Source of the DNA: Candidatus Hydrothermarchaeum profundi
GTDB lineage: Archaea; Hydrothermarchaeota; Hydrothermarchaeia; Hydrothermarchaeales; Hydrothermarchaeaceae
Direction: 5' to 3'
NCBI GenBank assembly: GCA_002011125.2
Contig: MTMF02000008.1
Location: forward strand, 1-64,000
Length of the DNA: 64,000 bases
This document shows, one piece after another, positions 15,863 to 46,261 of the stretch (its first letter is position 1; each line of letters starts with the position of its first letter). Under the pieces are notes generated by a model, which worked only from the letters and a program-made list of their open reading frames with translations, searched no databases and was not told where the DNA came from. The translations under genes were made by a program, and so were the position numbers.

Positions 15863-16793
15863 GTTTCTTTTAATAGTACCTCTGATACTCAGCTTTTTAG
15901 TCACTTTCTTGCTGACTCCTTTCTTATCTAAAGTACTCAGGGAAAGAGGAATAGTCGGGGTAGACCTTCACAAAGAAGAAAAACAGTATGTCCCAGAGAT
16001 GGTTGGAATAGCGATTCTCATCGGGTTTACATCATCAACTCTCGTAGCTTATTTAATCCTGAAAAGCCATAATATATCCCCCATAACTTTGGTAGCACTT
16101 CTCACGGGATTCCTCGGCATTATTGATGGGTTTAAAAAACTAACAGCACTACAAAAAATAGTTTTCCTCTCTTTAATTGGAGCAATTCTCATACCCTATT
16201 CTAATCTAGAGATATTAGGTTATGATGTTGGGGTCTTCTATCTTTTACTTGTTCCCATACTATTCATGTGCCTATCTAATTTTACTAACATGCTTGCTGG
16301 CTTTAATGGACTAGAAATCGGAACAGGAGCTATAGCGACAGCAGGGTTAGCTGTTATTTCATTCTTAGATGGTAAAGAATTAAGTTTTCTTATAAGTACA
16401 GGGTTACTCGGTTCTCTTATTGCCTTTTTATACTACAATAAGTATCCCGCTAAAGTATTCCCCGGGGATGTGGGTACTCTTATTATCGGTGCGGTATTAT
16501 TTTCATGTGCGGTTATAGATCAGCTTGATTTGATCGTGATAGGTGTACTTTTTTTTCCATATATTTTAGACGCTTGGTTAAAATACTTCTCAGCAGGAGT
16601 AATGACGCGAGAATCTCAGAGTCCTACTATAGTTAAAGAAGGAAAACTCTATATCCCAGAGAATAGTAATCTCTCACTTCCGAGGCTTATACTTAAAATT
16701 AAGCCTTTTACAGAGAAAGAAATAGTCTTGTGGATATGGCTAATAGAGGCAGTTTTTAGCGGACTAGCAATTTTGGTATCCTTCGCTTTTTAA
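15828..16793 (+). CDS. MraY/GPT-family polyprenyl-phosphate HexNAc-1-phosphate transferase (AglH-like)
   Basis: GVDLHK, VPEMVG, GIID, NFTNMLAGFNGLE, YNKYPAKVFPGDVGT. Confidence 0.85.
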   Translation: MITYTFSSLEVEFLLIVPLILSFLVTFLLTPFLSKVLRERGIVGVDLHKEEKQYVPEMVGIAILIGFTSSTLVAYLILKSHNISPITLVALLTGFLGIIDGFKKLTALQKIVFLSLIGAILIPYSNLEILGYDVGVFYLLLVPILFMCLSNFTNMLAGFNGLEIGTGAIATAGLAVISFLDGKELSFLISTGLLGSLIAFLYYNKYPAKVFPGDVGTLIIGAVLFSCAVIDQLDLIVIGVLFFPYILDAWLKYFSAGVMTRESQSPTIVKEGKLYIPENSNLSLPRLILKIKPFTEKEIVLWIWLIEAVFSGLAILVSFAF

Positions 16794-17206
16794 GATGGCT
16801 TCACAACTATCTCGCCGCTTGGGAGTACTCCCACCTCGAATTCAGTAAGCACTCTTCTACCTTTAATTTTATCGCCCGTTTTTTCTTTTAAAATACTAGA
16901 AAGATATGGAAAGCTATGCTTAACCCATATTCCCTTTTTATCTGCTGCTTTGTATATCTCCCTAACTGCATCATTTAGGTCGGTTTCTGGTTTTATGGCG
17001 ATCCATATCGCGGCATCTAGTGTCTTTACTAATTCCAAAGTATTTTTTGCTTTTTGAATATTCTTTAATGCACTTTTTTCAGTCGCAGATATGTTTGCCT
17101 TCGAAGTACCTAGCATTTTGGCTATTTCAACTTGGGAGTATCCTTGATTTCTGAGACGCAGTACCTCTACTTGACGTTCTGTTAAGATTATATTCTTTTT
17201 ATCCAT
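16790..17206 (-). CDS. tfx: Tfx-family DNA-binding protein
   Basis: LTERQVEVLRLRNQGYSQVEIAKMLGTSKANISATEKSALKNIQKAKNT followed by a Tfx-type C-terminal domain. Confidence 0.85.
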   Translation of the reverse strand: MDKKNIILTERQVEVLRLRNQGYSQVEIAKMLGTSKANISATEKSALKNIQKAKNTLELVKTLDAAIWIAIKPETDLNDAVREIYKAADKKGIWVKHSFPYLSSILKEKTGDKIKGRRVLTEFEVGVLPSGEIVVKPS

Positions 17207-17687
17207 TCTTGTACCCCTCTATGAGATCGGCAAGTTCTTTAATATCTTCAAATTTAAAGAGAGGGGCATCCGATTTTACAATGCCGTCACTAACCACTGC
17301 TATAAGGTTTTTTTTAGAGAACAACTTAAGGTCTTCTTCACTTTTTACTACCGCTATTTTGGGCGTATCAGCCTTGGTATAACCTTCAGTTAGTACAAAA
17401 TCTTCTGAATCTAAATATTCCGATACCAGGTTCTTCAGAAGATATTCCTTCTCTATATTTTTTGTGATCACAAGTCTGTCTGGTGAAGATATGATAACCG
17501 TGTCTGCCCCTGCAGCGAAATGCCTCCAAGTATCTTTCCCTGGCTCATCCATGGAAAAGCCATAGTGAATATGATGTTTTACGGTACCGATACGATATCC
17601 TCTGCTTTTAAGCTCAGCTATTAATCGTTCTATTAAAGTAGTCTTGCCAGATTTCTTTTTACCGACTATAGATATTATTGGGGGCAT
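17199..17687 (-). CDS. mobB: Molybdopterin-guanine dinucleotide biosynthesis protein B
   Basis: GKKKSGKTT P-loop, VKHH, DEPGKDTWRH, TEGY. Confidence 0.9.
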   Translation of the reverse strand: MPPIISIVGKKKSGKTTLIERLIAELKSRGYRIGTVKHHIHYGFSMDEPGKDTWRHFAAGADTVIISSPDRLVITKNIEKEYLLKNLVSEYLDSEDFVLTEGYTKADTPKIAVVKSEEDLKLFSKKNLIAVVSDGIVKSDAPLFKFEDIKELADLIEGYKNG

Positions 17688-17782
17688 ACTCTTCTTTTAA
17701 ATTTTTATAGCTAAAAGCTTTTTTCTAAACTTTTTTTAAGCGCTCTTTAATATCTCCCTACTCTAAAAAACTAATCAATTAT

Positions 17783-18373
17783 CTATGTTGCGATAACTTG
17801 GTAGTATTCGTTATTCACACAACTTTTGCAAATTTTTGTCCCATTTTCTCTGACTACAAGTGCTAAAGGAATTAAGTCCCCACAATAATCGCACTTTACT
17901 ATTTCAGAGTTTTCGAACTCTTGCGTCAGTGAGATTTTTACTTTCTTAATGTCCAGATATTCTTCATTTAACTCTAATAGTTGATAGCTCAATTCTTTCT
18001 CTTCATCTCTGGTAAGCTTCCTTTCTCTCATCATCCATCTCTTCATCAGGCTGGATAACCTATAGGCATCTTCCTTTAGTCCAACCCGTATCCCTACCTT
18101 CGTGTCCACCCTTGCTACCGTTATTGCAAGTTTACCATAATTCTTCACAATAGCGTTTCCATGGCCAAGAGTACATCCAGTAACAGCTTGAGCACCGTCA
18201 GCTAGACATCTAGCAGTTTCTGCTATGAGTATAGCTTTTTTGTTTCCTCTATTTATTCCTAATTTTTCCATAGCTATGCTACTCATCCTAACTCCCAGAG
18301 CGAGTCCAGGAGCGAGATGGCCATGCAGTTTAACCGCAAGTTCTAATGCTTCATCCTCGAGCATCATTAACAT
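17783..18373 (-). CDS. fmdE: FmdE-family protein with C-terminal Zn finger
   Basis: HGHLAPGLALG, CLADGAQAVTGCTLG, YGKLA, CDYC...CKSC. Confidence 0.85.
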   Translation of the reverse strand: MLMMLEDEALELAVKLHGHLAPGLALGVRMSSIAMEKLGINRGNKKAILIAETARCLADGAQAVTGCTLGHGNAIVKNYGKLAITVARVDTKVGIRVGLKEDAYRLSSLMKRWMMRERKLTRDEEKELSYQLLELNEEYLDIKKVKISLTQEFENSEIVKCDYCGDLIPLALVVRENGTKICKSCVNNEYYQVIAT

Positions 18374-18382: not shown

Positions 18383-19582
18383 TTAAAACAAGTTTACCTC
18401 AATAACCTCTCCTTTCTCAATATTCCTTTCAGTAATTACATATCCATCGGCGACTGTAGCTCTGAGAGAAGATGCTATGGTTGAAACATTGTAAAAATCG
18501 TCTGAGCGCATGAATTGCATATGTGAATTCTGGAACCCTATCGGAATCGCCTTCTCGTCATTAACTTGTACGAATACAATATTAGCAAAGCCTTCAGTAG
18601 CCATTTTTATGTTTTCAGTAATTCTCAGTTTTTTTACAGGTCTTGCCGCATCTCCTAAGAAGTACTTCTGAAGATTAAGTTCGGCAGCCACAAAAGCACC
18701 GGTAGGTTTACCTGGAAGAGCAAAAATTGGTGTACTCTCAATTATTCCAACAGCTAAAGGTTTACCTGGTCTAGTTCTTACTCTATAAAAAATCAGAGTG
18801 CCGAGTTCCATTATAGCTTTGAGTACATAGTCTCTATTACCTACGGATACTCCGCCACTTGTAATAATCACGTCATATTTGCTTGCTTCCAAAAGTTTTT
18901 CAGTTAGTTTTTTTAGATCGTCTGGTACAGTTCCTAAGAATAGTGGATCGCATCCCCACTCCTTTAAGCAGGCCATTATCATAGGGGCATTTGTGTCTAT
19001 AATCATATTATTGTGAACTTCGTCCCCGGTTGATATGACTGCAACGTTGGGTTTCTTATACACTTTGACTTTACTTACTCCAGCTCCATAAAGTATTCCT
19101 ATCTCTTGCGGGCGTATCTGTGTTTTTTTTCTGAGAATTATCTCCCCTCTACGATAATTACTTCCGGCTTTCACTACTTTAGTCCACTTTTCTACGGGTT
19201 TGCCGTAAAGATTTTCTCCTTTAACTTCTGAATCCTCCAACTTCAAGACACAGTCGGCACCGTCGGGGAGATATGCACCTGTAGCTATACTGACAGCTTC
19301 TCCAGCTCTTAGTCTCGGAATATCCTTTTTTTCTGTACCAGCATAAACAGAGCCAACAATCTTTAATGGATAACTTTTAGAGTCTTCATGGCGAATTGCA
19401 AAACCATCATAAGAGGCCATGTGATAAGGCGGAGAATTTTCTTCTGACACTACATCCTCAGCTAATTCCCTATTGAGAGATTTTTCAACTGTCACAAATT
19501 CAGAATCACGGTTGTAGTAATATTTTTCTCTTAGTTCTGCGATTAAAGATTGAGACTCTTGTAAGGTAATTAACTCCTTCAT
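18383..19582 (-). CDS. moeA: Molybdopterin molybdenumtransferase
   Basis: ASYDGFA, IATGAYLPDGADCV, STGDE, DTNAPM, TSGGVSVG, RPGKP, LPGKP. Confidence 0.9.
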   Translation of the reverse strand: MKELITLQESQSLIAELREKYYYNRDSEFVTVEKSLNRELAEDVVSEENSPPYHMASYDGFAIRHEDSKSYPLKIVGSVYAGTEKKDIPRLRAGEAVSIATGAYLPDGADCVLKLEDSEVKGENLYGKPVEKWTKVVKAGSNYRRGEIILRKKTQIRPQEIGILYGAGVSKVKVYKKPNVAVISTGDEVHNNMIIDTNAPMIMACLKEWGCDPLFLGTVPDDLKKLTEKLLEASKYDVIITSGGVSVGNRDYVLKAIMELGTLIFYRVRTRPGKPLAVGIIESTPIFALPGKPTGAFVAAELNLQKYFLGDAARPVKKLRITENIKMATEGFANIVFVQVNDEKAIPIGFQNSHMQFMRSDDFYNVSTIASSLRATVADGYVITERNIEKGEVIEVNLF

Positions 19583-19645: not shown

Positions 19646-19681
19646 TATAAATACTTTTTTTTGAAAAAAAATTTCAAATAA
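19646..19681 (-). promoter_or_regulatory. Promoter of the moeA operon: palindrome TTTGAAA-N5-TTTCAAA directly upstream of BRE (AAAAAAG) and TATA (TATTTATA)
   Basis: 19651-19681 matches 24201-24231 at 29/31 nt; about 65 nt upstream of the moeA ATG. Confidence 0.65.
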
Positions 19682-19898: not shown

Positions 19899-20138
19899 TT
19901 ACTTAATATCTTCAACGTTAAAATATACCAGCTGGAAATCTATCACACAATTCCACTTTTCTATTTTTTTTGAAATACTTTCTAAATCTTCTGTTGTTTT
20001 TGCTTCTAATACGATAGCTATACCTTTACTACCCACCCCTTTGATCTCTACTCCTTTTAATTTTTTCAGAAGACTTTTAACTTTTTTTTCTTCCCTAGGC
20101 ATAGGCACTACAACAGCTCCAGCAATTGGCAAGTTCAT
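19899..20138 (-). CDS. napD: NapD signal-peptide chaperone
   Basis: 79 aa directly downstream of napA; IAGAVV...GVEI...KGIAIVLEA...VIDFQLVYF ferredoxin-like pattern. Confidence 0.8.
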   Translation of the reverse strand: MNLPIAGAVVVPMPREEKKVKSLLKKLKGVEIKGVGSKGIAIVLEAKTTEDLESISKKIEKWNCVIDFQLVYFNVEDIK

Positions 20139-20239: not shown

Positions 20240-22630
20240 TTATGCCCTTTCGACTTTGCACTTACATACCTTATAATTTGGTTCTCCAGCTTTGGACCAG
20301 CTTTTAGGATCGTCTACTGTAAGGTCGTTTATAAGTTTGTTTTCGTCGAACCATGGCACAAATACCATGCCCGGTTGGGCTCTATCAGTAATCCAGGCAG
20401 ACAAAACAATACTCCCTCTAGGAGAAGTTATTCTAACATTTTGTCCGTTTTTTATACCAAGTCTATCAGCGTCTTGAGGAGAAATCTCCACATATGCTTC
20501 GGGGTTAAGTTCACGCAACAATCTGACCCGCATCGTCATAGTTCCAGTGTGCCAATGTTCTATAACCCTCCCAGTGTTCAATACATATGGGTACTCTTTA
20601 TCTGGCATTTCAAAATCGACTTCTGCGTTTACAGCCCTGATTAAAGCTTTTCCCTTTGGTTCTCCGTGTAAAGGATTGGTACCGTAATAATTTACAGGTC
20701 CTTCAAGCTTCTTATCTTCGAGGTGTTGATCATACAAAGTAACATATCCCGTCGAATATTTTTTGGTTGTTTTTCCAAATACTTTCTTAGCATATTCTTT
20801 TGAGATAAATCTCTTATTTGAACCTCTATTATCAAAGTCTGTTGATGGACAGGGCCATTGTACGCCCCCTGCATGGGCCTTTAATTTTTCTCTTGTAGCT
20901 CCCCAGAGATCCACATCGGTGCCTTTAGTGCATCTCCTATACTCGTTCCAAGCTTCTTCTTCTGTTTCAAAGCCTAAATCCTTCCTACCAAGCTTTTTAG
21001 CTATCCTTTTTGCTACTTCTTTTATCTGCCAGAAATCTGGCTTAGCCTCACCTGGGGGGTCAATCAGCTTGGGGATGAATTGACTTCTTCTATCTGTCTG
21101 GCCCATGACACCTTCTTTCTCTACCCACATTGCTGATGGCAGTATTGCTGTGGCTACTTCAGTTGTTCTATCCGGATATATGTCGCTTACCACGGTAAAG
21201 GCCTTACGCATTGCTTCGCGATAGCGATCTGCGTTGGGAAGACTTTGTGCAGGGTTTGTAGTATTGATCCAGATAGCTTTTATATCCCCCTTCTCTAATC
21301 TCATAAACATATTCACTGCGGGACCGGTAGGTTTAGTGGGTAGCTGTTCCACTGGATACCCCCATATTTCTGCAATCTGTCTTCGATGTTCTTCATTAGC
21401 TAATAATCTATGGCCGGGCAACAGATGAGTTAGTCCTCCTTGCTCCCTTGTTCCTCCGCATGCATTAGGTTGCCCAGTCAATGATAAAGAATCGCATCCT
21501 GGCTTACCAATTTTACCAGTAATTAGGTGCAAATTATGGACTTGGCAGTTCAGTTGTACTCCCTTCGTTCTTTGATTTAGACCCATTGTCCATAAGCTAA
21601 CAGTAGAATATCCTTTTCTTGCAAACCAACTAGCAGCTAGCCTTATATCTTCTGCTTTAACACCAGTTATGCTTTCAACTTTTTCAGGAGTATAGTCTTT
21701 TAAAAATTCTTTAAATTCTTCAAGATTCATAAGTTCTCCAGAGCTACCCAACTCTTTCTTAAAAGTGCAGTATTTCAAATGCTCGTGGTCTACCAAGTCT
21801 TCATCTATTATCACTTGCGCCATGGCATTTAATAGATACATATCAGTTCCAGATTTAAATTGTAGATGTAAATCTGCATATCTAGCGGTTGGAGTATACC
21901 TAGGGTCTGCAACTATAACTTTAACTCTATCTGGATATGCGCTTTTCCTGTCAATAACACGTCTAAAAAGCATTGGATGTTGTTCAGCCATATTTGCGCC
22001 GATGATAAAGAAACAGTCTGCCAAATCGAGATCATCATAGCTACCTGCTGGTTCATCTGTTCCGAATGTATTGAGATAGCCTCCTACAGCGCTTGCCATA
22101 CATAGTCTTGGGTTTCCCTCAACATTTGCAGTACCGATTATACCTTTAAAAAGCTTATTCGCTGCGTAGGCTTCCTCTGTAGTATTTTGGCCCGATCCAT
22201 ACCATGCCACACTATCTGGACCGAATTTTTTAATATTATCGACAAAGGTATCTGCTATTAGGTCCAGAGCTTCTTCCCAGCTTACCTCCTTGAAACTGCC
22301 GTCTTCTTGCCGGATCAGGGGCTTAGTCAATCTTTTTTTTCCTCCCCCACCATAAAGTATCTCTGGCAGTTTGTATCCTTTCATACAAAGCCTACCAAAG
22401 TTTACCGGACTATCTGCGTCACCTTTTACTGCAACTACCTTGCCGTCTTTAATGCCGACTAATACAGTACAACCTGTGCCGCAGAACCGGCATTGTGATC
22501 GTCCAAATTTCAGTTCACTTTCTTTAGCGAATACGGGTTTCACAGCTAGACCTGCATAGGTCATAGCAATAGCAGTTGCTGATGCTTTTATGAACTCTCT
22601 CCTACTCAGTTTCATTGACATTTTATTCAC
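20240..22630 (-). CDS. napA: Periplasmic-type nitrate reductase catalytic subunit (monomeric Desulfovibrio-like NapA)
   Basis: Tat motif SRREFIK; [4Fe-4S] CRFCGTGC...GRLC; Mo ligand region GNPRLCMASAVGGY; SLTGQPNACGG; TGRVIEHWHTGTMT; likely ATG start at 22621. Confidence 0.92.
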   Translation of the reverse strand: MNKMSMKLSRREFIKASATAIAMTYAGLAVKPVFAKESELKFGRSQCRFCGTGCTVLVGIKDGKVVAVKGDADSPVNFGRLCMKGYKLPEILYGGGGKKRLTKPLIRQEDGSFKEVSWEEALDLIADTFVDNIKKFGPDSVAWYGSGQNTTEEAYAANKLFKGIIGTANVEGNPRLCMASAVGGYLNTFGTDEPAGSYDDLDLADCFFIIGANMAEQHPMLFRRVIDRKSAYPDRVKVIVADPRYTPTARYADLHLQFKSGTDMYLLNAMAQVIIDEDLVDHEHLKYCTFKKELGSSGELMNLEEFKEFLKDYTPEKVESITGVKAEDIRLAASWFARKGYSTVSLWTMGLNQRTKGVQLNCQVHNLHLITGKIGKPGCDSLSLTGQPNACGGTREQGGLTHLLPGHRLLANEEHRRQIAEIWGYPVEQLPTKPTGPAVNMFMRLEKGDIKAIWINTTNPAQSLPNADRYREAMRKAFTVVSDIYPDRTTEVATAILPSAMWVEKEGVMGQTDRRSQFIPKLIDPPGEAKPDFWQIKEVAKRIAKKLGRKDLGFETEEEAWNEYRRCTKGTDVDLWGATREKLKAHAGGVQWPCPSTDFDNRGSNKRFISKEYAKKVFGKTTKKYSTGYVTLYDQHLEDKKLEGPVNYYGTNPLHGEPKGKALIRAVNAEVDFEMPDKEYPYVLNTGRVIEHWHTGTMTMRVRLLRELNPEAYVEISPQDADRLGIKNGQNVRITSPRGSIVLSAWITDRAQPGMVFVPWFDENKLINDLTVDDPKSWSKAGEPNYKVCKCKVERA

Positions 22631-24099: not shown

Positions 24100-24195
24100 A
24101 TTCCTCTCACCTCCCTATAGTAAATCGACTATTATCCCTCTAATTAAATTTGAGTTTTTCATACTTTTACCATTATAAGTCAATCTTTTAAGTAA

Positions 24196-24231
24196 TATTT
24201 ATACTTTTTTTTGAAATTAAATTTCAAATAA
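24196..24231 (-). promoter_or_regulatory. Promoter of hao-napAD: palindrome TTTGAAA-N5-TTTCAAA plus BRE plus TATAAATA
   Basis: Minus strand reads TATTTGAAATTTAATTTCAAAAAAAAGTATAAATA about 100 nt before the hao ATG; near-identical to 19651-19681. Confidence 0.65.
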
Positions 24232-24298
24232 ATAAATTATTTTTTAAAAAAAGTTTTAACTAGGATAAAATTCTATATAACACTCTTTTTATAGTTTT

Positions 24299-24955
24299 TT
24301 ATTTATCCTTTTTCCAAATCCGCAATGTTTCAATAGCTTTTTCACCGTTTTCCGTAAGAAAATATCTCTTATCTTTTCCTTGGTCTATCATATTTTCAGA
24401 TTTTAATACTCTAAGATGAAAGCTAAGTTTTGTAGGGTCTTCTACCCCTAACTCTTCTTTTATATCAGTAAAACGTAGCTTCCCCTTATTAAACAATAGT
24501 TCTCCGATATTTCTGCGAAGCGGATTAGAAAAAGATTTTACTATAGAGCGTCCTAAAGAGATAGCCGAGAGATCACGAGCCATCTCTTGTTGTTTAGCAA
24601 ATTTTGATTCTTCTATTGCCCTCTTTATCGTAACTTGAACTTCATTTAGTTTAAATGGCTTAGATATGTAATCACTAGCACCACTTTTTATAGCCTCAAC
24701 TGCACTTTCAATGGTGGCAAAGGCTGTGATAACGATTACCGGCACCCATGGTCTTTGCCTTTTCACTTCTCTTAATACTTCTAATCCGTTTAACCCAGGC
24801 ATCACAAGATCAGTTAGTACCACATCGACTCCCTCAATATTCTCTAATCCCTCTTTTCCATTTGAAGCCGTTATTACCTCATATCCCTCGCTGATGAACA
24901 TCTCTTTCAAACCTTCTCTCATCTTCTGGTCGTCTTCGATTATTAGTATGTTCAT
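24299..24955 (-). CDS. Response regulator, REC plus winged-HTH (ArsR-like) output domain
   Basis: IEDD, VLTDLVMPG, ITAF, ISKPF; C-terminal SNPLRRNI...FTDIKEELGVEDPTKLSFHLRVLK...YFLTENG. Confidence 0.9.
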   Translation of the reverse strand: MNILIIEDDQKMREGLKEMFISEGYEVITASNGKEGLENIEGVDVVLTDLVMPGLNGLEVLREVKRQRPWVPVIVITAFATIESAVEAIKSGASDYISKPFKLNEVQVTIKRAIEESKFAKQQEMARDLSAISLGRSIVKSFSNPLRRNIGELLFNKGKLRFTDIKEELGVEDPTKLSFHLRVLKSENMIDQGKDKRYFLTENGEKAIETLRIWKKDK

Positions 24956-37825: not shown

Positions 37826-37848
37826 AGTTGAAAAAGGAGGCTAAAGAA

Positions 37849-40800
37849 ATGGCATTAACTAGAAGAAAATTTTTAAAGATGAGTGTAGCAACCGCTGCAG
37901 CAGCTATGGGATTAGGGAAAAAAGGGCTATCTTTAACCATTCTTGAACCTGTACGGGTTGATAATCCATTAGAGTCTTATCCAGATAGAAACTGGGAGAA
38001 AGTTTACCTTGATCAATATAAATATGATTCTACCTTCACCTACATATGTTCTCCAAATGACACTCATGCTTGCAGAGTTAAAGCCTTCGTTAGAAATGGA
38101 GTGATAGTGAGGGTAGAGCAAAACTATGACGTGCAGAAATATAAGGATCTATATGGAAATCAAGCAACAGTGCATTGGAATCCTAGAATGTGTCTCAAAG
38201 GATACACATTTCACCGCAAGGTATATGGGCCCTATCGCCTTAAAAAGCCCTTGATAAGGAAAGGGTGGAAGGAGTGGGCGGACGATGGTTTTCCTGAACT
38301 TACTCCAGAGAATAAGAAAAAATATAAATTTGATTCTAGGGGAACTGATGAACTTCTTCAGATAGACTGGGAAAGCGCATTTGAATATGCAGCTAGGGGG
38401 ATCATAGCCATAGCAAAGAGATACAGCGGGGAAGAAGGAGCTAAAAAATTATTAGCTCAAGGATATGCACCAGAAATGGTAAAGGAGATGGGGGGGGCTG
38501 GAACTAGGACTATAAAATGTCGTGGAGGAATGGGTCTTTTAGGCGCCATAGGAAAATACGGGATGTATAGGTTTTCCAACATGTTGGCATTACTGGATTC
38601 TCATATTCGGGGCGTCGGTCCAGATGAAGCCAAAGGCGGACGCAATTGGGATAATTATACATGGCATGGTGATCAGGCTCCTGGTCATCCGTGGGTACAT
38701 GGTTTGCAGACAAGTGAATGTGATTTCAATGACTTGAGAAATTCAAAGCTTCACATAGCTGTTGGTAAAAACCTAGTAGAAAATAAAATGCCTGAATCTC
38801 ATTTCTTCATAGAACTAATCGAACGAGGTGCCAAGGTCGTTGTTATATCACCGGACTATTGTGCTCCTAATACAAAAGCAGATTATTGGATACCAGTGAG
38901 ACCTAATTCAGACACGGCTTTATTCTTAGGGATTACTAAAATATTGATGGATAACAAGTGGTATGATGAAAAATTTGTTAAAAAATTCACTGACTTCCCG
39001 TTGCTTGTTAGAACTGATACACTAAAGAGGCTGAGAGCTGACGAGGTATTTCCAAATTATGTGAACCAAGATATTTCCAATGGCGTAATGATGAGGGTCA
39101 TGGGGTTAACAAAGGAACAAAGGGATAAAATAGGAGATAGAGTGATATGGGACAAAAATACTAATGGACTCAAAGCCATATCCCCTGAGGACGTGGGTAA
39201 AAAACTTGAAGAGAAAAACATCGATCCTGACTTAGAGTGGAAGGGCAAGGTAAAACTCGTTGATGGATCTGAAGTAGAAGTAATGACTCTCTGGGAGATG
39301 TACAAAGTTCATTTAAGAGACTATGATATCGATACAGTAGCTGAAATAACACAAGCCCCAAAAGATCTAATTATGAAATTAGCAAAGGACATTGCTACAA
39401 TTAAGCCTGTGGCTATACATGTTGGTGAAGGAATAAATCATTGGTTCCATGCAACAGAGGTCAATAGAGCTACATATCTCCCTCTTATGTTAACAGGTAA
39501 TATAGGAATCCATGGTGCAGGAAGTCATACTTGGGCAGGAAATTACAAGGCAGCTTTATGGCAGGGAAGTTCATGGTCTGGTCCTGGATTTCTTGGTTGG
39601 ATTAAAGAAGATCCGTTTAATCCTAACTTAGATCCTAATGCAAAGGCAAAGGACTTAAAAATAAGGGGCACCGTCAAGGGAGAGGCAATTGCTTATTGGA
39701 ACCATGGCGACACACCTCTGGTAGTAGAGACACCGAAATATGGTAGGAAAGTGTTTACAGGCAAAACAGCTATGCCTACGCCAACAAAGGTTATCTGGAC
39801 TACAAATGTCAATTTGTTAAACAACGCAAAACACGCCTATGACATGCTTTTCAATGTAAATAATAATGTTGAGCTTATAATGCAAAATGAGATTATAATG
39901 ACCTCTAGTGTAGAATACGGAGATATAACTTTTCCAGCTAACTCTTGGGTTGAATCACAGGCATATGAGGTACATGTAAGTTGTTCTAATCCTTTTCTAC
40001 AAATTTGGAAAGGAGGAATAAAGCCCCTCTATGATTCTAAGGACGATGTCAGAATATTAGCAGAGGTAGCTAGGGCAATTGGCCGAGAACTTAATGACAA
40101 GCGCTTCGAAGATTACTGGAAGTTTGCACTAGAGGGGAGGGAAGAGGTATATATAAATCGCTTACTTGACGGTTCTGCAACAACCCATGGATATACAGTG
40201 GAGGATATCATAGCAGGAAAATATGGAGAGCCTGGAGCAGCTTTAATGTTATTTAGGACTTATCCTAGAGTTGCATTTTATGAACAAATTCATGATAGCT
40301 GGCCATTTTACACGGATACAGGAAGGCTACATGCCTACTCAGATATCCCAGAAGCAATTGAATATGGAGAAAATTTTGTGGTACATAGAGAAGGACCAGA
40401 AGCAACCCCATATCAACCAAATGTAATAGTAAGCAATAACCCCTATATTCGTCCTGATGATTACGGCTTGCCTGACGATGCTAAACACTGGGATGAGCGC
40501 ACAGTGTTGAATAAAAAGATGCCATGGAGTAAAGTAAAAAACACAAAGAACTTCCTCTGGGAAAAAGGCTATAAATTTTATTGCATTACCCCCAAGACTC
40601 GACATCGTGTGCATTCTTCGTGGAGTGATGTTGACTGGCATATGATATGGGATTCTAACTTTGGGGATCCTTATAGGATGGATAAACGAACTCCTGGTGT
40701 TGGCGAACATCAGATCCATATTAATCCTATTGCTGCTAGGGACTTGGGATTAAATGATGGAGACTATGTTTATGTGGACGCTAATCCAGCGGACCGACCA

Positions 40801-41295
40801 TATCGTGGTGCTAAAAGCAATGACCCAAGATATAGGGTGGCGAGAGCCATGCTCAGAGTTAAGTATAACCCTGCGTTTCCTTATCACTTTACAATGATGA
40901 AGCATGGAGCTTTTATAGCTACCGAAAAAAGCGTGGATGCTCATGAAACTCGCAGCGATGGACGTGCCTTATCCAAGGGCACTGGATATCAGGCAAACTT
41001 CAGATATGGTAGCCATCAAAGTATTACTCGCGACTGGTCAATGCCGATGCATCAGACCGATTCTCTTTTCCATAAAAAGAAGGCCGTTATGGGTTTCATG
41101 TTTGGTAGCGAGTCTGATAATCACGCTATAAATACAGTTCCAAAAGAGACCTTAGTGAAAATATCTAAAGCAGAAGACGGAGGTCTAGGTGGAATAGGAA
41201 TCTGGGAACCAGCTACTACAGGTTTTTCTCCAGCTAATGAGAGTGAGTTTATGAAAAAATACTTGAGGGGGGATCTAATAAATGTTAAGAGGTGA
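37849..41295 (+). CDS. nxrA: Nitrite oxidoreductase/nitrate reductase alpha (Mo-bisPGD) subunit, Tat-exported anammox/Nitrospira type
   Basis: RBS AAGGAGG; Tat motif TRRKFLK; NPLESYPDRNWEKVY; FS0 motif CSPNDTHAC-x39-C; Mo-ligand Asp in YTWHGDQAPGHP; TPKTRHRVHS; WSMPMHQTDSLFHK; NTVPKETLV. Confidence 0.93.
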   Translation: MALTRRKFLKMSVATAAAAMGLGKKGLSLTILEPVRVDNPLESYPDRNWEKVYLDQYKYDSTFTYICSPNDTHACRVKAFVRNGVIVRVEQNYDVQKYKDLYGNQATVHWNPRMCLKGYTFHRKVYGPYRLKKPLIRKGWKEWADDGFPELTPENKKKYKFDSRGTDELLQIDWESAFEYAARGIIAIAKRYSGEEGAKKLLAQGYAPEMVKEMGGAGTRTIKCRGGMGLLGAIGKYGMYRFSNMLALLDSHIRGVGPDEAKGGRNWDNYTWHGDQAPGHPWVHGLQTSECDFNDLRNSKLHIAVGKNLVENKMPESHFFIELIERGAKVVVISPDYCAPNTKADYWIPVRPNSDTALFLGITKILMDNKWYDEKFVKKFTDFPLLVRTDTLKRLRADEVFPNYVNQDISNGVMMRVMGLTKEQRDKIGDRVIWDKNTNGLKAISPEDVGKKLEEKNIDPDLEWKGKVKLVDGSEVEVMTLWEMYKVHLRDYDIDTVAEITQAPKDLIMKLAKDIATIKPVAIHVGEGINHWFHATEVNRATYLPLMLTGNIGIHGAGSHTWAGNYKAALWQGSSWSGPGFLGWIKEDPFNPNLDPNAKAKDLKIRGTVKGEAIAYWNHGDTPLVVETPKYGRKVFTGKTAMPTPTKVIWTTNVNLLNNAKHAYDMLFNVNNNVELIMQNEIIMTSSVEYGDITFPANSWVESQAYEVHVSCSNPFLQIWKGGIKPLYDSKDDVRILAEVARAIGRELNDKRFEDYWKFALEGREEVYINRLLDGSATTHGYTVEDIIAGKYGEPGAALMLFRTYPRVAFYEQIHDSWPFYTDTGRLHAYSDIPEAIEYGENFVVHREGPEATPYQPNVIVSNNPYIRPDDYGLPDDAKHWDERTVLNKKMPWSKVKNTKNFLWEKGYKFYCITPKTRHRVHSSWSDVDWHMIWDSNFGDPYRMDKRTPGVGEHQIHINPIAARDLGLNDGDYVYVDANPADRPYRGAKSNDPRYRVARAMLRVKYNPAFPYHFTMMKHGAFIATEKSVDAHETRSDGRALSKGTGYQANFRYGSHQSITRDWSMPMHQTDSLFHKKKAVMGFMFGSESDNHAINTVPKETLVKISKAEDGGLGGIGIWEPATTGFSPANESEFMKKYLRGDLINVKR

Positions 41296-41299
41296 ACTC

Positions 41300-42253
41300 A
41301 TGAATCGCAAGGGTATTTTAGCTTTTGGAGTCGTCTTTCTTATATCATTAACTTTAACATTTTTAAATATCAAAATTGCAAATTCTCAGGGAATTATACT
41401 TGAAGCTAAATATGTCGAGCATATCTCTATCGATAATATTAATGATCCAGTCTGGGATGAAGCAGTGCCTGTAATAGTGCCTCTTAGTGCTCAGTCGAGA
41501 ATAACAGCTCCGCGGGGAGGTGGAGCAATTAAATCCCTAACTGCTAGAGCACTTCATGATGGAGAGGCGATATATCTTAAACTCACTTGGAAAGATGATA
41601 CTGAAGATGTAAGCTTTTTGAGACAAGAAGATTTCAGAGATTCTGTCGCGGTTCAATTTCCAGTGAAATTAGATAATGGAAAGTTACCTTCTGTGTGTAT
41701 GGGACAACTTGGAGCAGCTGGCAACATATGGCATTGGAAGGCAGATTGGAACGAGGAATACTTAAATGGGTTCAAAGATATTGATAATGTGTATCCAAAT
41801 ATGATGGTGAATTTTTATCCAAGAGAAGAAGAGGAGATATTCTATCCTGCAAAATCTGTCGGAAATCTTTATTCTGTAGATAAACGGACAACCCCTGTTG
41901 AAAATCTAATTTCTACTGAATACGGTACAATAACTCCCTCAGCTGAACAGAATGTAATAGGAAAGGGAGAGTGGAAAAATGGAGAATGGACTGTTGTTAT
42001 GAGTCGATCCTTTACGACACCTTACGAAAGCGATGCACAATTTGGAGTGGGAAAGAGAACAGCTATCTCCTTTGCAGCATGGGACGGCTCTGCTGGGGAA
42101 AGAGATGGCTTGAAGTCTACGTCTACATGGATAGACCTTGAGATATCTGAACCCCTACCACAAAAATCTCCTTTGGATACGATAGTCGTATTTACACTAT
42201 TTGCAGCGATTGTGATTTTTGTTGTATTTATAATAATTAGAACTGTTACATGA
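41300..42253 (+). CDS. nxrC: Heme b gamma subunit (EbdC/NxrC family) with N- and C-terminal hydrophobic anchors
   Basis: ARALHDGEAIYLKLTWKD, FRDSVAVQFP, candidate Met ligand in VCMGQ, NIWHWKADW, FAAWDGSAGERDGLK (candidate Lys ligand); C-terminal TM. Confidence 0.82.
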   Translation: MNRKGILAFGVVFLISLTLTFLNIKIANSQGIILEAKYVEHISIDNINDPVWDEAVPVIVPLSAQSRITAPRGGGAIKSLTARALHDGEAIYLKLTWKDDTEDVSFLRQEDFRDSVAVQFPVKLDNGKLPSVCMGQLGAAGNIWHWKADWNEEYLNGFKDIDNVYPNMMVNFYPREEEEIFYPAKSVGNLYSVDKRTTPVENLISTEYGTITPSAEQNVIGKGEWKNGEWTVVMSRSFTTPYESDAQFGVGKRTAISFAAWDGSAGERDGLKSTSTWIDLEISEPLPQKSPLDTIVVFTLFAAIVIFVVFIIIRTVT

Positions 42254-42547: not shown

Positions 42548-43315
42548 GTGATAAAGATATATTTAAGCCGTTCATGTGTTACATTATTTATTGTTGGCAT
42601 TGTTATTAGTGCCATATTTGGGTATTCTGTAAGTTATAGTGAGGTCTCTTCTATAAAACAAGAGATGGAAAAAGTGAAAGCTGAAAATAGAGAACTCGAA
42701 GCAAGGATACAGGCCGGATTCAGAGTTTTTTCGGAGTTAGAGAGAATGTCGTATACCCTCAGCCAGATAAGAGTGGCTCTTTTATTGGGTGACTATGAAG
42801 TAGCTACTTTTAGGGCTAATCAATTTAAGGAATCTGCGACAGGACTTTCTAAATATTTAAAACCTGAATATACTACTACCCTGGAGGAGCTAGTAGATGG
42901 GTTAATTGTTGCTATAGAGGAGGGAAATGAAGAAGCAATTGAGGAGAGATCTAGAGCTCTCTTTCTCCTAGTGCAAATATTAGAGTCAGAATTTGGTGTT
43001 AGAGAAGACGTAGAGTTAATAGGGGAGATAGATATCAAGAATAATATGAGAAGGATGAATCATGAACTTGCTAGAATACTCTCTGCTTTGGATGAGGATA
43101 ACTATAACATGACAAAAGAGGCGTTTAATGATTTCAAAAAAATATATATGGCTTTATCTGAAACAACTCCTGAAGCATGGGATCCTTATTTTAGAACTGA
43201 TATTGTATTTGAAATTGAAAAAAGCATTATAGAAAAAGACAAAAATAATTCATTAGAAGCTCTTAATAAACTTTCAGAAAAGAGTTGTGATAAGTGTCAT
43301 ACAAAATATCGTTGA
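42548..43315 (+). CDS. Membrane-anchored helical-bundle monoheme cytochrome c (class II type)
   Basis: N-terminal TM and coiled coil; two helical-bundle repeats; single CDKCH four residues from the C-terminus. Confidence 0.75.
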   Translation: MIKIYLSRSCVTLFIVGIVISAIFGYSVSYSEVSSIKQEMEKVKAENRELEARIQAGFRVFSELERMSYTLSQIRVALLLGDYEVATFRANQFKESATGLSKYLKPEYTTTLEELVDGLIVAIEEGNEEAIEERSRALFLLVQILESEFGVREDVELIGEIDIKNNMRRMNHELARILSALDEDNYNMTKEAFNDFKKIYMALSETTPEAWDPYFRTDIVFEIEKSIIEKDKNNSLEALNKLSEKSCDKCHTKYR

Positions 43316-43344: not shown

Positions 43345-43908
43345 GTGATGGAAATTAAGGCGACAGAGCAATTAAAAGAAGAACATAAGGTTATTAAACT
43401 GATGTTGCAGGTTTTAATAAAGATTTGTGAAAAACTAGAGTCGGGTGAAAAGGTTCCTATAGAACACCTTAATAAAATAGTGGATTTTATTAGAACATTT
43501 GCGGATAAATGTCATCATGGAAAGGAAGAAGACCTCCTTTTTCCGGCAATGGAAAAATCCGGCGTGCCTAGAGAGGAGGGTCCGATTGGCGTAATGTTGG
43601 CGGAGCATGATAATGGGCGGAAATATGTTAAGAATATGGATGAGGCTATTTCTAGATATGGGAGAGGGGATAATACTGCGATACCTGACATAATAGCGAA
43701 TGCAGAGGGATACATCAATCTTCTAGCTCAGCACATTGAGAAGGAAGACAATATACTTTACAAATTAGCAGATATGCATCTCCCCATGGAGAGGCAGGAA
43801 GAATTACTCAAAGAATTCGAAAAAATTGAGCGGGAAAGAATTGGTATTGGGAAGCATGAGGAATTTCACGAATTAATACATCAATTAAGGGATATATACT
43901 TACAATAA
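43345..43908 (+). CDS. Hemerythrin/HHE domain protein
   Basis: LKEEH, FADKCHHGKEEDLLFP, MLAEHDNGR, QHIEKEDNILY. Confidence 0.9.
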   Translation: MMEIKATEQLKEEHKVIKLMLQVLIKICEKLESGEKVPIEHLNKIVDFIRTFADKCHHGKEEDLLFPAMEKSGVPREEGPIGVMLAEHDNGRKYVKNMDEAISRYGRGDNTAIPDIIANAEGYINLLAQHIEKEDNILYKLADMHLPMERQEELLKEFEKIERERIGIGKHEEFHELIHQLRDIYLQ

Positions 43909-43956: not shown

Positions 43957-44298
43957 ATGTCGGTTAACACACACAAAGGAATCGAGTTGGGCATGCTTCA
44001 AATGCAGATTTTATGGCTTTTATGGCGGGAGCCCACTCATGGTTATGAGTTAATGAAAAGACTTGATAAAATAAAGAATAGCAAAGTAGAGCAGGGGACT
44101 CTTTATCCAGCGCTTCAAAAATTGGAAGAGAATAATCTTATAAGAGTTAAAAGGGTAGGGGAGCGGGGTAAAAAGATATACGAACTCACTAGCAGGGGGG
44201 AGGAGATTATGATAAAAACATGTGAAGAATTCTCAAAAACTTTTTCGGGGATTTTTAGTGATTTTGTATGTAAAACATGTAAAACAGAGGTGAGATAA
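43957..44298 (+). CDS. PadR-family transcriptional regulator with C-terminal CxxC
   Basis: PTHGYEL, GTLYPALQKLE, KIYELTSRG; FVCKTCK tail; TAATG overlap with iscS. Confidence 0.88.
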   Translation: MSVNTHKGIELGMLQMQILWLLWREPTHGYELMKRLDKIKNSKVEQGTLYPALQKLEENNLIRVKRVGERGKKIYELTSRGEEIMIKTCEEFSKTFSGIFSDFVCKTCKTEVR

Positions 44299-45503
44299 TG
44301 AGGAGAGTGTATATGGATCATGCGGCGACTACACCTGTAGACCCCCGAGTTATGGAAGCAATGAAACCTTTTTTCTCAGAGAAATATGGTAACCCGTCTT
44401 CACTTTATAGTTTTGCTCAGGAAGCAAAAAAAGCGATGGAGGAGGCGAGAGAAAAGATAGCTGACCTAATTAACTCATCTTCCTCTGAAGTTATATTCAC
44501 ATCCGGTGGCACAGAGTCGGACAACTTGGCTATAAAAGGGGTTGCTTTTGCTAACAAGAAAAAGGGTAAACATATAATAACTTCATCTATAGAGCATCAC
44601 GCAGTGCTCCATCCATGTGAGTGGCTTGAAAAAATGGGTTTTGAGGTAACATATTTACCAGTTGACAATAAAGGCTTTGTTTCTGTAGATAAGTTGGAAG
44701 AGGAGATTCGCAACGATACGATCTTAATTTCAATTATGCATGCTAATAATGAAATCGGAACTATTGAACCTATAGAAGAGATAGGGAAAATAGCGAAGGA
44801 AAGAGGCATATACTTCCATACCGATGCAGTTCAAACTGTAGGAAAAATACCTGTAGACGTAGAAAAAATGAATGTAGATTTATTGACTATCTCAGGTCAT
44901 AAAATGTATGGACCAAAAGGGGTTGGGGCTCTTTATGTTCGCAAAGGCACAAAAATAACTCCTTTAATACACGGAGGGGGCCATGAACGGAATCTTAGAT
45001 CAGGTACTGAGAATGTTTCTGGTATAGTAGGATTCGGAAAGGCGGCAGAACTCGCTGCTCGAGAAATGGATAAAGAAGCAAAGAGGCTGGTAAAGCTGAG
45101 GGATAGGTTAATTGAGGGCGCCTTAAAGATCGAGAACTCTTGGTTAAATGGACCAAGGAAAAGAAGGTTGCCGAATAATGTTAACATAGGCTTTAAATTC
45201 ATAGAAGGTGAATCTTTAATTTTAGAACTCGACTTTAGCGGCATTTACGCCAATACTGGAAGTGCTTGTTCCTCAAAGTCTCTTAAACCAAGCCATGTTC
45301 TAACTGCTATTGGGTTAAGACCCGAGGAAACCCACGGGTCACTACGATTTACTCTTGGTAAACAAAATTCAGATGAAGATGTGGACTATGTATTAGAAGT
45401 ACTGCCTAATGTAGTTGAGAGATTAAGAAGAATATCCCCGTTTAAAAAAGATTTTGGGGAATATGAGGAGGCTTTAGCAAAGGAACAGTCTCATAAACAC
45501 TAG
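44298..45503 (+). CDS. iscS: Cysteine desulfurase (group I)
   Basis: YMDHAATT, FTSGGTESDN, HTDAVQ, SGHKMYGPKG (PLP Lys), RSGTEN, TGSACSS. Confidence 0.95.
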   Translation: MRRVYMDHAATTPVDPRVMEAMKPFFSEKYGNPSSLYSFAQEAKKAMEEAREKIADLINSSSSEVIFTSGGTESDNLAIKGVAFANKKKGKHIITSSIEHHAVLHPCEWLEKMGFEVTYLPVDNKGFVSVDKLEEEIRNDTILISIMHANNEIGTIEPIEEIGKIAKERGIYFHTDAVQTVGKIPVDVEKMNVDLLTISGHKMYGPKGVGALYVRKGTKITPLIHGGGHERNLRSGTENVSGIVGFGKAAELAAREMDKEAKRLVKLRDRLIEGALKIENSWLNGPRKRRLPNNVNIGFKFIEGESLILELDFSGIYANTGSACSSKSLKPSHVLTAIGLRPEETHGSLRFTLGKQNSDEDVDYVLEVLPNVVERLRRISPFKKDFGEYEEALAKEQSHKH

Positions 45504-45513
45504 GAGGAAACAT

Positions 45514-45909
45514 ATGTATAGCGACAAGTTAATAGACCATTTTCGAAATCCTAGGAACATGGGTAGAATGGAAAACCCTGATGGTATTGGAAAGGTAGGA
45601 AACCCCGTATGTGGGGATGTAATGTATCTATATATTAAGATAAAGGACAATAAGATAGACGATATCAAATTCGAGACCTTCGGATGTGCAGCGGCTATAG
45701 GTACAAGTAGTGTAATAACAGAGATGGCTAAAGGGAAAACCTTGGACGAGGCTTTAAAGATAACTAAAAAAGATGTAGTTGATGCGGTTGGAGGATTACC
45801 ACCTATCAAGATGCATTGTTCGGTATTAGCTGCTGATGCTTTACGTGCGGCAATTGAAGATTATCGTAAGAAAAAAGGTAGTGGGAATGATAAGCCAAAA
45901 GATAGTTAA
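45514..45909 (+). CDS. iscU: Fe-S cluster scaffold IscU/NifU-N
   Basis: HFRNPRNMG, GNPVCGD, FGCAAAI, LPPIKMHCS. Confidence 0.95.
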   Translation: MYSDKLIDHFRNPRNMGRMENPDGIGKVGNPVCGDVMYLYIKIKDNKIDDIKFETFGCAAAIGTSSVITEMAKGKTLDEALKITKKDVVDAVGGLPPIKMHCSVLAADALRAAIEDYRKKKGSGNDKPKDS

Positions 45910-46261
45910 AATTCTAAAAAATCCAAAGCATATGGGAAAAATAGAAAGCCCAGATGGGGTTGGGAAAGTGACTCTTGGTGAACCTCATTGTGAGGATGAG
46001 GTATGGTTTTATATTAAAGTAAAGGATGATAAGATAGTGGACGCAAAATTCGAAGCATTTGCATGTGCGCCAGCTTTAGTTACAAGTAATATCGCGGCAG
46101 AGCTTGCTTTAGGCAAAACAATAGGCGAAGCTAAAAAACTTAGTAAGATGGATGTGTCGTCCTACTTAGGAGGGATTCCTCAGATAGAGAGAAAATGTGC
46201 CGACTTAGGAACTGATGCGCTTAAAGCTGCTATTAACGATTATCTTAAAAGAGGACAGTAA
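45887..46261 (+). CDS. Divergent second IscU-like scaffold
   Basis: NPKHMG, EPHCED, FACAPA, IPQIERKCA; three Cys kept, His and LPP motif lost. Confidence 0.8.
   Translation: MISQKIVKILKNPKHMGKIESPDGVGKVTLGEPHCEDEVWFYIKVKDDKIVDAKFEAFACAPALVTSNIAAELALGKTIGEAKKLSKMDVSSYLGGIPQIERKCADLGTDALKAAINDYLKRGQ

Follow-up and report, generated by a model that had tools for sequence, protein, structure and literature searches.

The first 64,000 nt of contig MTMF02000008.1 of Candidatus Hydrothermarchaeum profundi (the window) carry, at 16790-46261, two molybdenum (Mo) enzymes of nitrogen-oxide respiration, encoded together with cytochromes, cofactor genes and sensors. This region is a genuine, contiguous respiratory locus in which two evolutionarily separable units lie side by side. 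Both units are likely to work on the outside of the cell. The right unit would reduce nitrate with a nitrite oxidoreductase (NXR)-type enzyme fed by a Q-cycle, and the left unit would combine NapA with a nitrite-reducing octahaem cytochrome c. All genes that a preliminary description had named in this region were recovered with Pfam or NCBIfam at or near their proposed positions. The 16 CxxCH motifs in four proteins were also recovered, namely eight in the octahaem cytochrome, six in a hexahaem cytochrome, one in the sensor domain of the histidine kinase HK1 and one at the C-terminus of a 255-aa protein; the last two proteins are not classical multihaem cytochromes. Twin-arginine translocation (Tat) motifs were present in three proteins as described, namely NapA (SRREFI), the Rieske protein (SRRNFL) and the NXR catalytic subunit NxrA (TRRKFL). 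The view that both Mo enzymes face outward without a transporter was likewise upheld, with Tat signals on both and no nitrate/nitrite transporter found: the proteins of the region had no major facilitator superfamily/NarK domain, and the best NarK-type match in the genome reached 51 bits against a cut-off of 311.7.

The host is a metagenome-assembled genome (MAG) of the Hydrothermarchaeota, which are uncultured archaea of crust and sediment. This genome, G000 (2.19 Mb, 19 contigs, 97.65% complete, 1.46% contaminated), holds the window on a contig of 135 kb (C8). Families of archaeal type occurred among the window proteins (TFX_C, a TrmB-type regulator and DUF7347), and mcrA was not found in G000. 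For comparison, a phylum collection of 38 species genomes was used, G000 plus 37 others, with G022 and G007 placed in the same order as G000. NxrA was found in three of the 37 others (G002, G007 and G022; 67-72% identity) and Nap-type NapA in seven, all of family f2 (74-77% identity), with one further weak hit. Only G000, one genome of 38, had both arms together. The locus was therefore read as two units and not as the single island first proposed, because the arms never co-occur in the other genomes of the phylum, where they are unlinked.

Gene order in the relatives followed the same division. In G030 and G034 the order was napA-napD-hao-mobB-tfx, with fmdE on the opposite strand, and the identities to the window were 57% for mobB, 55-57% for tfx and 51% for fmdE. 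The nap cluster of the f2 relatives comprised napA and napD together with napG-like and napH-like genes. On the NXR side, G002 and G007 shared the order bd-like, two monohaem cytochromes c, then nxrC-nxrA-nxrB-narJ and the gene of a 314-aa protein. The bd-like protein resembled cytochrome bd subunit I (585-589 aa, 68-72 bits; L079 1-2975 in G002 and L033 2626-5573 in G007). The quinol-side module has thus been exchanged, since G000 has a Rieske/cytochrome b-hexahaem set where G002 and G007 have the bd-like protein and two cytochromes c.

The proteins closest to NxrA of G000 (P0002-P0004) were 80% identical to it. In a FastTree phylogeny of 55 NxrA sequences, G000 and P0002-P0004 formed the sister group of the other Hydrothermarchaeota, inside a bacterial radiation, with a local support of 97, a measure that is weaker evidence than a full likelihood search. 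Identities to relatives were 69-82% for AtpA, 74-77% for NapA and 67-72% for NxrA; from these values, vertical descent followed by losses cannot be told from transfer inside the phylum. The mer gene and the window's copy of V-ATPase subunit I were also tried as calibrators of transfer and rejected as poor, being patchily distributed or paralogous.

The core genes of the right unit are listed below; from the Rieske gene to the second iscU gene further downstream, neighbouring genes overlap or are at most 48 bp apart.

32109-32642, plus strand: Rieske protein (PF00355) with the Tat motif SRRNFL
32644-33366, plus strand: cytochrome b6-like protein (PF00033/PF13631)
33379-33831, plus strand: subunit-IV-like protein (PF00032, Cytochrom_B_C)
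33841-34857, plus strand: hexahaem cytochrome c with six CxxCH motifs and an N-terminal transmembrane (TM) helix
34857-36173, plus strand: nxrB, 601 bits to Kuenenia NXR (7b04_A)
36183-36908, plus strand: NarJ/TorD-like chaperone (PF02613, TIGR03482)
37828-41295, plus strand: nxrA, 1904 bits to Kuenenia NxrA (7b04_B), with the Tat motif TRRKFL and a TAT_signal_seq domain
41282-42253, plus strand: nxrC, an EB_dh haem b subunit (PF09459, 122 bits; 112 bits to 7b04_C)

Residues 8-1153 of NxrA (1155 aa) aligned to residues 1-1146 of 7b04_B. Among its next best matches were perchlorate reductase 4ydd (195 bits), ethylbenzene dehydrogenase (132) and E. coli NarG (92). For all three subunits, the best solved relative was the Kuenenia NXR (7B04), of the periplasmic type known from Nitrospira, Nitrospina and anammox bacteria. 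The match to this type was thus one of full-length similarity in NxrA, of a Tat-bearing NxrA accompanied by NxrB and an EB_dh-type haem b NxrC, and of a NarJ/TorD-type chaperone. The archaeal enzyme differs from the Kuenenia type in its host, in the C-terminal TM helix of NxrC (295-323), in having its genes share an operon with those of a Rieske/b complex, in the lack of any O2 reductase found in the genome, and probably in direction. Because NxrC bears this C-terminal helix, the enzyme would be anchored on the outer face of the membrane.

Judged from sequence, the enzyme is NXR-type by descent and its role is likely to be nitrate reduction. The likely direction follows from the respiratory genes of G000: no O2 reductase was found, the cytochrome bd family gave no match, and the single COX1-family (haem-copper) enzyme was a c-type nitric oxide reductase (cNOR) NorB (392 bits to 3o0r_B). 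An earlier suggestion that the two Mo enzymes might run in opposite directions lost its footing for want of an O2 reductase among the genes found. NorB is encoded with a c-type cytochrome beside dsrAB at C9:122310-126103 (L056). As for the genes nirK, nirS, nor and hcp, whose presence elsewhere in the genome had been of interest from the start, cNOR NorB was found, NirS and NrfA gave no hit in G000, NirK gave nothing above the cut-off, and the only Prismane-family hit was a 791-aa frame. A full NosZ was not found in G000, and dsrAB and an anaerobic ribonucleotide reductase were present. The other Mo enzymes of G000 resembled formate dehydrogenase and Psr/dimethyl sulfoxide (DMSO)-type reductases.

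The three genes that precede the hexahaem gene encode a b6f-like set, with the Rieske protein, a cytochrome b split into b6 and subunit IV, and a c-type subunit in the same operon. The NCBIfam family ExtP matched the cytochrome b at 292.3 bits, just above its cut-off of 290, and a PetC-like match of 78 bits was also obtained within the set. Bacterial b6 proteins shared 60-70% identity with this cytochrome b, its counterparts in phylum relatives no more than 52%. A search with the hexahaem cytochrome returned 105 proteins including that of the window, and among the 104 others the named ones were nearly all from anammox bacteria. These relatives have a common spacing of the six haem motifs and an N-terminal TM helix; a 363-aa Kuenenia protein (P0125) was 47% identical, with equal six-haem spacing. 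A metagenome scan with the hexahaem cytochrome gave one weak locus (30% identity over 143 residues).

The left unit is read leftward and comprises an octahaem-napA-napD operon followed by a Mo-cofactor operon.

22627-24099, minus strand: octahaem cytochrome of the hydroxylamine oxidoreductase (HAO) family (PF13447, 100.7 bits against a cut-off of 21.9) with eight CxxCH motifs and a signal peptide
20240-22630, minus strand: napA, with Fe4S4, Molybdopterin and Molydop_binding domains and the Tat motif SRREFI
19899-20138, minus strand: napD (Pfam NapD, 45.8 bits, cut-off 28), a NapA-specific Tat chaperone
18383-19582, minus strand: moeA (Pfam MoeA_N/MoCF_biosynth), Mo insertion
17783-18373, minus strand: fmdE (Pfam FmdE)
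17199-17687, minus strand: mobB (Pfam MobB), formation of the bis-molybdopterin guanine dinucleotide cofactor
16790-17206, minus strand: tfx (Pfam TFX_C), a Tfx-type DNA-binding protein

NapA matched D. desulfuricans NapA (2jio) at 680 bits, and its six best solved matches were all NapA. Its Tat signal, its Fe4S4-Molybdopterin-Molydop_binding architecture and the adjoining napD are those of a NapA. The two Mo enzymes had been called unrelated; they do belong to distant branches, but both catalytic subunits share the Pfam Molybdopterin domain. No dedicated redox partner for NapA (NapB, NapC or NapGH) was found in the locus. With NapG of G026 as a tblastn query no match was obtained in G000, NapH of G026 gave one 26%-identical match, and the NapH-like matches in G000 were weak only.

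The octahaem cytochrome belongs to the HAO/IhOCC family, having eight CxxCH motifs and a profile score over the cut-off. Its solved matches were the octahaem cytochrome c of Ignicoccus hospitalis, IhOCC (4qo5, 188 bits), Kuenenia HAOr (6h5l, 95 bits), N. europaea HAO (1fgj, 84 bits) and 6hif. The alignment to 4qo5 consisted of four stretches covering residues 31-432, and the alignments to N. europaea HAO spanned only residues 212-391. A C-terminal TM helix was located at 461-487. In passages of PMC9250108, IhOCC is an octahaem that reduces nitrite and lacks P460; Kuenenia HAOr, which lacks P460 too, is cited there as converting nitrite to NO. By its similarities, the octahaem cytochrome of the window is most likely a candidate nitrite reductase closest to IhOCC. 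The two proteins are alike as archaeal HAO-family octahaems, and differ in that the gene of G000 stands in an operon with napA and napD.

The promoter regions of the two left operons share a 31-nt box with the palindrome TTTGAAA-N5-TTTCAAA.

19651-19681, no strand assigned: copy 1, palindrome 78-96 bp upstream of the moeA start
24201-24231, no strand assigned: copy 2, palindrome 111-129 bp upstream of the octahaem start

On the side of the transcribed gene, copy 1 gives way to an A-run and the TATA-like sequence GTATTTATAT, and copy 2 to an A-run and the TATA-like sequence GTATAAATAT. Across the 2.19 Mb of G000 there are exactly two instances of the palindrome, and the box has no third copy. 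Within the window, the palindrome gave two matches against 0.01 expected from shuffles, and the full box (29 specified bases) two against 0.00, in both cases for a pattern taken from its own two copies. A MAFFT alignment of the two promoter regions was out of register and was set aside in favour of the pattern search that defines the box. The box was absent upstream of the NXR operon. Inverted repeats were seen there and upstream of napA in G026; these were AT-rich and not common to both, so no operator could be proposed on the NXR side. The hao-napAD and moeA operons are probably co-regulated through this operator-like box by the response regulator RR1 or by Tfx.

Between the two arms lie two sensor pairs, all encoded leftward.

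24299-24955, minus strand: RR1, a receiver with the archaeal winged helix-turn-helix domain DUF7347
24952-27504, minus strand: HK1, with an extracytoplasmic Tll0287-like domain, HAMP, GAF, PAS and kinase core
27504-28202, minus strand: RR2, a receiver with the winged helix-turn-helix domain DUF7347
28168-30963, minus strand: HK2, with dCache_3/sCache_3, HAMP, GAF, PAS and kinase core

HK1 and RR1 were assigned to the left unit, HK2 and RR2 to the right. Neither kinase has a NarX-like periplasmic sensor module: HK1 has the Tll0287-like domain and HK2 the dCache_3/sCache_3 domain instead. The CxxCH motif of HK1 (residue 176) is located between TM helices 4-23 and 204-225, and HK1 is a predicted haem-c sensor kinase. 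The nap-linked kinase of G026 agrees with HK1 in its Tll0287-like domain and in the context of the CxxCH motif. In all four genus-g18 loci with upstream flank, napA was directly preceded by a regulator and the C-terminus of a kinase. The closest homologues of HK2 and RR2 (64% and 62% identical) adjoin the bd-like/cytochrome c/nxrC-nxrA cluster of G007 (L033), and the NXR operon is probably under HK2/RR2 control. The proposal of a single regulon was not supported, as the NXR operon lacks the shared box; what did hold is that the Nap unit is accompanied in relatives by Mo-cofactor genes and by a kinase with its regulator.

From these data, the following route is proposed. Menaquinol would be oxidised by the b6f-like complex of Rieske protein, cytochrome b6 and subunit IV, with the anammox-type hexahaem cytochrome as its c-type subunit. 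Electrons would then pass from the hexahaem cytochrome to the membrane-anchored haem b of NxrC, on to NxrB and finally to the Tat-exported Mo subunit NxrA, which would reduce nitrate to nitrite outside the cell. With energy conserved by the Q-cycle and nitrate reduced outside, no nitrate/nitrite transporter would be needed. The nitrite may be converted by the octahaem cytochrome either to ammonium, as by IhOCC, or to NO, as by Kuenenia HAOr; in the latter case the cNOR, whose gene lies outside the locus, could take up the NO. NapA and the octahaem cytochrome probably draw their electrons from the same Rieske/b-hexahaem route, since NapG, NapB and NapC were not found in G000.

Several observations count against this reading. 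NXR-type enzymes are reversible, and sequence cannot give the direction. The fusion of Rieske/b and NXR genes was seen in G000 only among the 38 phylum genomes, so that the electron path is drawn from operon position and analogy; the cytochromes b of G002 and G007 lie on contigs other than that of nxrA and are at most 52% identical. NxrA scored 331 bits against the type-II DMSO reductase subfamily, far below the cut-off of 985. NapA, by its sequence a NapA-like enzyme of a divergent, monomeric class, was below the NCBIfam equivalog cut-offs (657.2 against 904 for NF010055 and 626.6 against 930.55 for TIGR01706). On the regulatory side, the derivation of the box from the copies that it counts has to be set beside its absence from 79 loci of other genomes. 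The HK2-like kinase of G007 (557 aa) is without the Cache part. Regulators linked to nap in the relatives resembled RR1 and RR2 to nearly the same degree (47% against 46%), which makes the pairing of regulators weak. Finally, at 97.65% completeness, absences in G000 are not proof.

A different reading, that of one self-contained, laterally acquired island forming a single nitrogen-oxide regulon, in which a high-affinity Nap and an energy-conserving NXR share the work, is unlikely, though it accounts for several features. All parts adjoin on one contig, the sensors sit between the arms, Mo-cofactor and iron-sulfur (Fe-S) genes flank them, both Mo enzymes face outward, and with NapG, NapB and NapC not found both may depend on the one Rieske/b-hexahaem set. 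Yet the arms never occurred together in the 37 other genomes, and the box that is unique to the hao-napAD and moeA operons does not precede the NXR operon. The island is also not self-contained as had been supposed: two TatC genes, NorB and the cytochrome c maturation (Ccm) genes are all present elsewhere in the genome. The marks of a mobile genomic island were missing as well. The G+C content across the region (0.33-0.42) did not deviate from that of the genome (about 0.39), the proteins scanned included none of an integrase or transposase family, and there was no transfer RNA (tRNA) within 16790-46261 or at either flank, the single tRNA of the window lying about 10 kb beyond. The grouping of NxrA with other Hydrothermarchaeota further argues against recent import.

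It is improbable that the NXR works oxidatively, turning nitrite into nitrate while the octahaem cytochrome reduces nitrite (dismutation), or coupled to another acceptor. All three subunits are indeed closest to the nitrite-oxidising Kuenenia enzyme, and an octahaem of the nitrite-reducing type and an anammox-type hexahaem are co-encoded. The relatives G002 and G007 carry a bd-like protein, and such a protein accompanies NXR in nitrite oxidisers. However, no O2 reductase was found in G000, and a Rieske/b complex in the NXR operon would fit downhill flow from quinol to nitrate, the transfer from nitrite to quinone being expected to cost energy. According to passages of PMC7327174 and PMC4683180, the same enzyme type is the nitrate reductase of Methanoperedens. 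In the boldest form of this idea, the arms would be opposed on nitrite and coupled by the hexahaem and the Rieske/b complex, permitting growth by nitrite dismutation; this is very improbable. Nitrite dismutation has been predicted thermodynamically but is not known from any organism. Even with dismutation left aside, an anammox-style network joining Rieske/b complex, hexahaem, octahaem and NXR would here be met in an archaeon for the first time.

Use of another oxyanion (selenate, chlorate, perchlorate or arsenate) by one or both Mo enzymes was given little credence. It is prompted by the ExtP match of the cytochrome b, a family named for a selenite/tellurite reduction operon, by catalytic subunits that both fall below their NCBIfam cut-offs, and by one anammox hexahaem relative that its source labels 'perchlorate reductase subunit gamma'. 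The ExtP label, however, concerns the quinol-oxidising module and not a Mo enzyme, the full-length match of NxrA to Kuenenia NxrA far exceeds those to perchlorate reductase and ethylbenzene dehydrogenase, and the best matches of NapA are all NapA, with NapD present. That the juxtaposed arms are an assembly or binning chimera is hardly credible: G000 is the sole genome of 38 with both arms, but in an independent Logan assembly of run X1, possibly the source sample, one 49,361-nt contig spanned 16500-36400 with 0 differences, run X2 of another study covered 30 of 30 bins at >=95% identity and 26 of 28 pieces at >=99% although no single listed piece bridged 24129-29152, and G+C content and strand skew ran continuously across the region.

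The reading as two outward-working units, with nitrate reduction on the right, combines themes that are known from other organisms. Passages of PMC12954380 and PMC12053348 describe, for Kuenenia Kuste4569-4574, a b6f-like complex with a hexahaem cytochrome (kuste4573) and an HAO-like octahaem proposed as a nitrite reducer. The archaeal locus resembles this complex in its Rieske protein, four-helix b6-like and subunit-IV-like proteins, in a hexahaem that replaces cytochrome f, and in an associated HAO-like octahaem. It differs in encoding no NAD(P) oxidoreductase subunit and in having the octahaem gene in the divergent nap operon, the protein being closer to IhOCC than to Kuenenia HAOr. As far as passages of PMC4683180 and PMC7327174 go, the nar clusters of haloarchaea also encode a Rieske/b complex, and in Methanoperedens electrons are thought to reach the NXR-like 'Nar' by way of a Rieske/b complex that has multihaem cytochromes. 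All share an outward-facing archaeal enzyme with a Tat signal, an Orf7/EB_dh-type haem b subunit and NarJ. In Methanoperedens, on the same sources, the Rieske/b genes lie apart from the nar operon, which contains HCO-II and NapH-like genes, whereas in G000 the Rieske/b genes stand in the nxr operon; nitrite goes to NrfA there, and NrfA was not found in G000. The architecture of the locus thus combines the haloarchaeal nar, the Methanoperedens NXR-like Nar and the Kuenenia Rieske/b theme.

For the phylum itself, passages of PMC6775978 and PMC6759336 report napADGH and narGHIJ in some Hydrothermarchaeota MAGs, with Nor and without NirS or NirK. The napA, napG-like, napH-like and napD genes of the f2 relatives agree with this. 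The Nar of those passages is a cytoplasmic membrane-bound enzyme, unlike the Tat-exported NXR type of G000. Nothing is said in these passages of a fusion of Rieske/b and hexahaem genes or of an HAO-like partner, nor of the shared box or the co-occurrence of both systems, and in the parts of the NXR literature consulted the phylum is cited only in reference lists. What may be new is an archaeal operon that holds both the NXR type and an anammox-type hexahaem; the same may be true of the swap on the quinol side, of an HAO-NapA operon that lacks NapGH and of the shared box.

Nitrate genes that the passages of PMC6775978 and PMC6759336 list only as 'nap' and 'nar' would thus conceal, in at least one Hydrothermarchaeota lineage, an outward-facing NXR-type enzyme. 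Hard-wired in one operon to a Q-cycle complex, this NXR would provide a testable route of energy conservation without a nitrate transporter. The quinol side is swappable between a bd-like protein with two cytochromes c (two relatives) and a Rieske/b6 set with an anammox-type hexahaem (G000). Parts regarded as typical of anammox bacteria are here encoded by an archaeon, and in the shared box there is a candidate for an archaeal operator, to which candidate regulators can be assigned.

The remaining genes of the right arm are accessory to this core.

31087-32013, plus strand: 8-TM protein, the first rightward gene, with eight hydrophobic segments
36881-37825, plus strand: 314-aa protein with HExxH and a Zn-ribbon
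from 42263, plus strand: 80-aa open reading frame without family match
42548-43315, plus strand: 255-aa protein, membrane-anchored and helical, with CxxCH at residue 247
43345-43908, plus strand: hemerythrin (Pfam), di-iron
43957-44298, plus strand: padR (Pfam PadR regulator)
44298-45503, plus strand: iscS (Pfam)
up to 46261, plus strand: two iscU genes (Pfam)

Linkage of such genes with the enzyme was examined in 50 loci around NxrA homologues, mostly bacterial. Besides nxrB (39), the chaperone (39) and nxrC (42), these loci contained the 314-aa protein in 15 cases, mobB in seven and the 8-TM protein in four, all of the latter in Chloroflexota. A Rieske/b set was found once (L013, Verrucomicrobiia), with Rieske, b and subunit IV about 5 kb upstream of nxrCAB, and a hemerythrin with an HAO-like gene once, in Phycisphaera. 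Among the bacterial neighbours of nxrA, a hemerythrin, a NarJ-like chaperone and two of the unknown proteins are thus seen again. This recurrence supports a functional link of the accessory genes with NXR.

The 314-aa protein has an HExxH motif of the type RHELMH and a C-terminal four-Cys ribbon, and belongs to no Pfam or NCBIfam family. Its homologues adjoin nxrA in the 15 loci (L006, L007, L013, L020, L022, L023, L025, L028, L030, L031, L037, L041, L042, L079 and L080), plus G002, G007 and G022, and the HExxH motif was also present in 10 of the 13 bacterial-locus homologues checked. A profile search of the family gave 1128 cluster representatives at 50% identity, 887 of them at E <= 1e-10. 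The AlphaFold2 (AF2) model had a mean confidence (pLDDT) of 93.2. Foldseek returned no match at E <= 0.001 for this model; the best VIA-align Z-score was 5.5, a value under 8, which may mean only a common arrangement, and zincin-type metallohydrolases were common among the 50 rows listed. As a lead, resting mainly on the HExxH motif, the protein may be zincin-like. This unnamed zincin-like/Zn-ribbon family, with about 1100 cluster representatives at 50% identity, accompanies nxr across many bacterial phyla.

For the 8-TM protein no Pfam or NCBIfam match was obtained, and its atlas leads were all under 0.9; a homologue also stands beside the nxr genes in G002 (34% identity). The 255-aa protein had no family match, and a sequence search of the PDB was without meaningful result. 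None of the 37 other genomes of the phylum yielded this protein, and a paralogue in G000 (47-48% identical, with the same C-terminal motif) was located at C9:722735-723523. That the 255-aa protein might be a class-II (c'-like) cytochrome c, an idea prompted by its C-terminal CxxCH, was considered; its model was mediocre (pLDDT 73.6 from two sequences), Foldseek returned only generic helical bundles, and the results spoke neither for the idea nor against it. The hemerythrin matched YtfE/RIC/DnrN weakly (24-30 bits, below the cut-offs), and at locus L029, of a Phycisphaera MAG, the gene of a hemerythrin with 40% identity separates nxrA from nxrB. Together with PadR, IscS and IscU, the hemerythrin of the window probably serves to supply or repair Fe-S clusters under nitrogen-oxide stress.

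Some further observations were made elsewhere in the genome. Beside NorB, a 415-aa membrane protein consists of repeated COX1-fragment-like segments, and a homologue follows the HAO-like gene in G026. At C9:722735-726904 (L096, L101), the paralogue of the 255-aa protein adjoins small CuA-type cupredoxins and a cupredoxin-NapH-like fusion of about 675 aa (C9:724880-726904); the arrangement is reminiscent of the nar operon of Methanoperedens, for which Table 1 of PMC4683180 gives HCO-II and NapH genes. At C9:263347-272567 (L094), a formate-dehydrogenase-like Mo enzyme is encoded with FDH3-beta-like, NrfD-like, HdrA-like and TorD-like proteins and both TatC genes.

Within the window, the tRNA at 56440-56533 on the plus strand (52 bits, 94 nt) was all that Rfam reported at the gathering threshold, with neither a riboswitch nor an RNA of another family; this tRNA possibly bears an intron and was not reported by ARAGORN. 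The link to the mer gene, through which C1 oxidation coupled to nitrate had been thought plausible, was not supported: mer is real but lies 16 kb away, beyond a chemotaxis operon, and was found in only three of 36 relatives, at 46-47% identity. In G000 it occurs in two copies that are 67% identical, at window 62275-63279 (plus strand) and at C9:167996-168961. QueA, a bacterial queuosine enzyme, is encoded with a TGT-family gene at window 6818-8903 on the minus strand (PF02547, 399 bits; PF01702, 487 bits). At window 1232-2959, on the plus strand, a second, divergent V-type ATPase subunit I was 30% identical to the copy at C9:185759, with counterparts of 38-44% identity in some relatives only.

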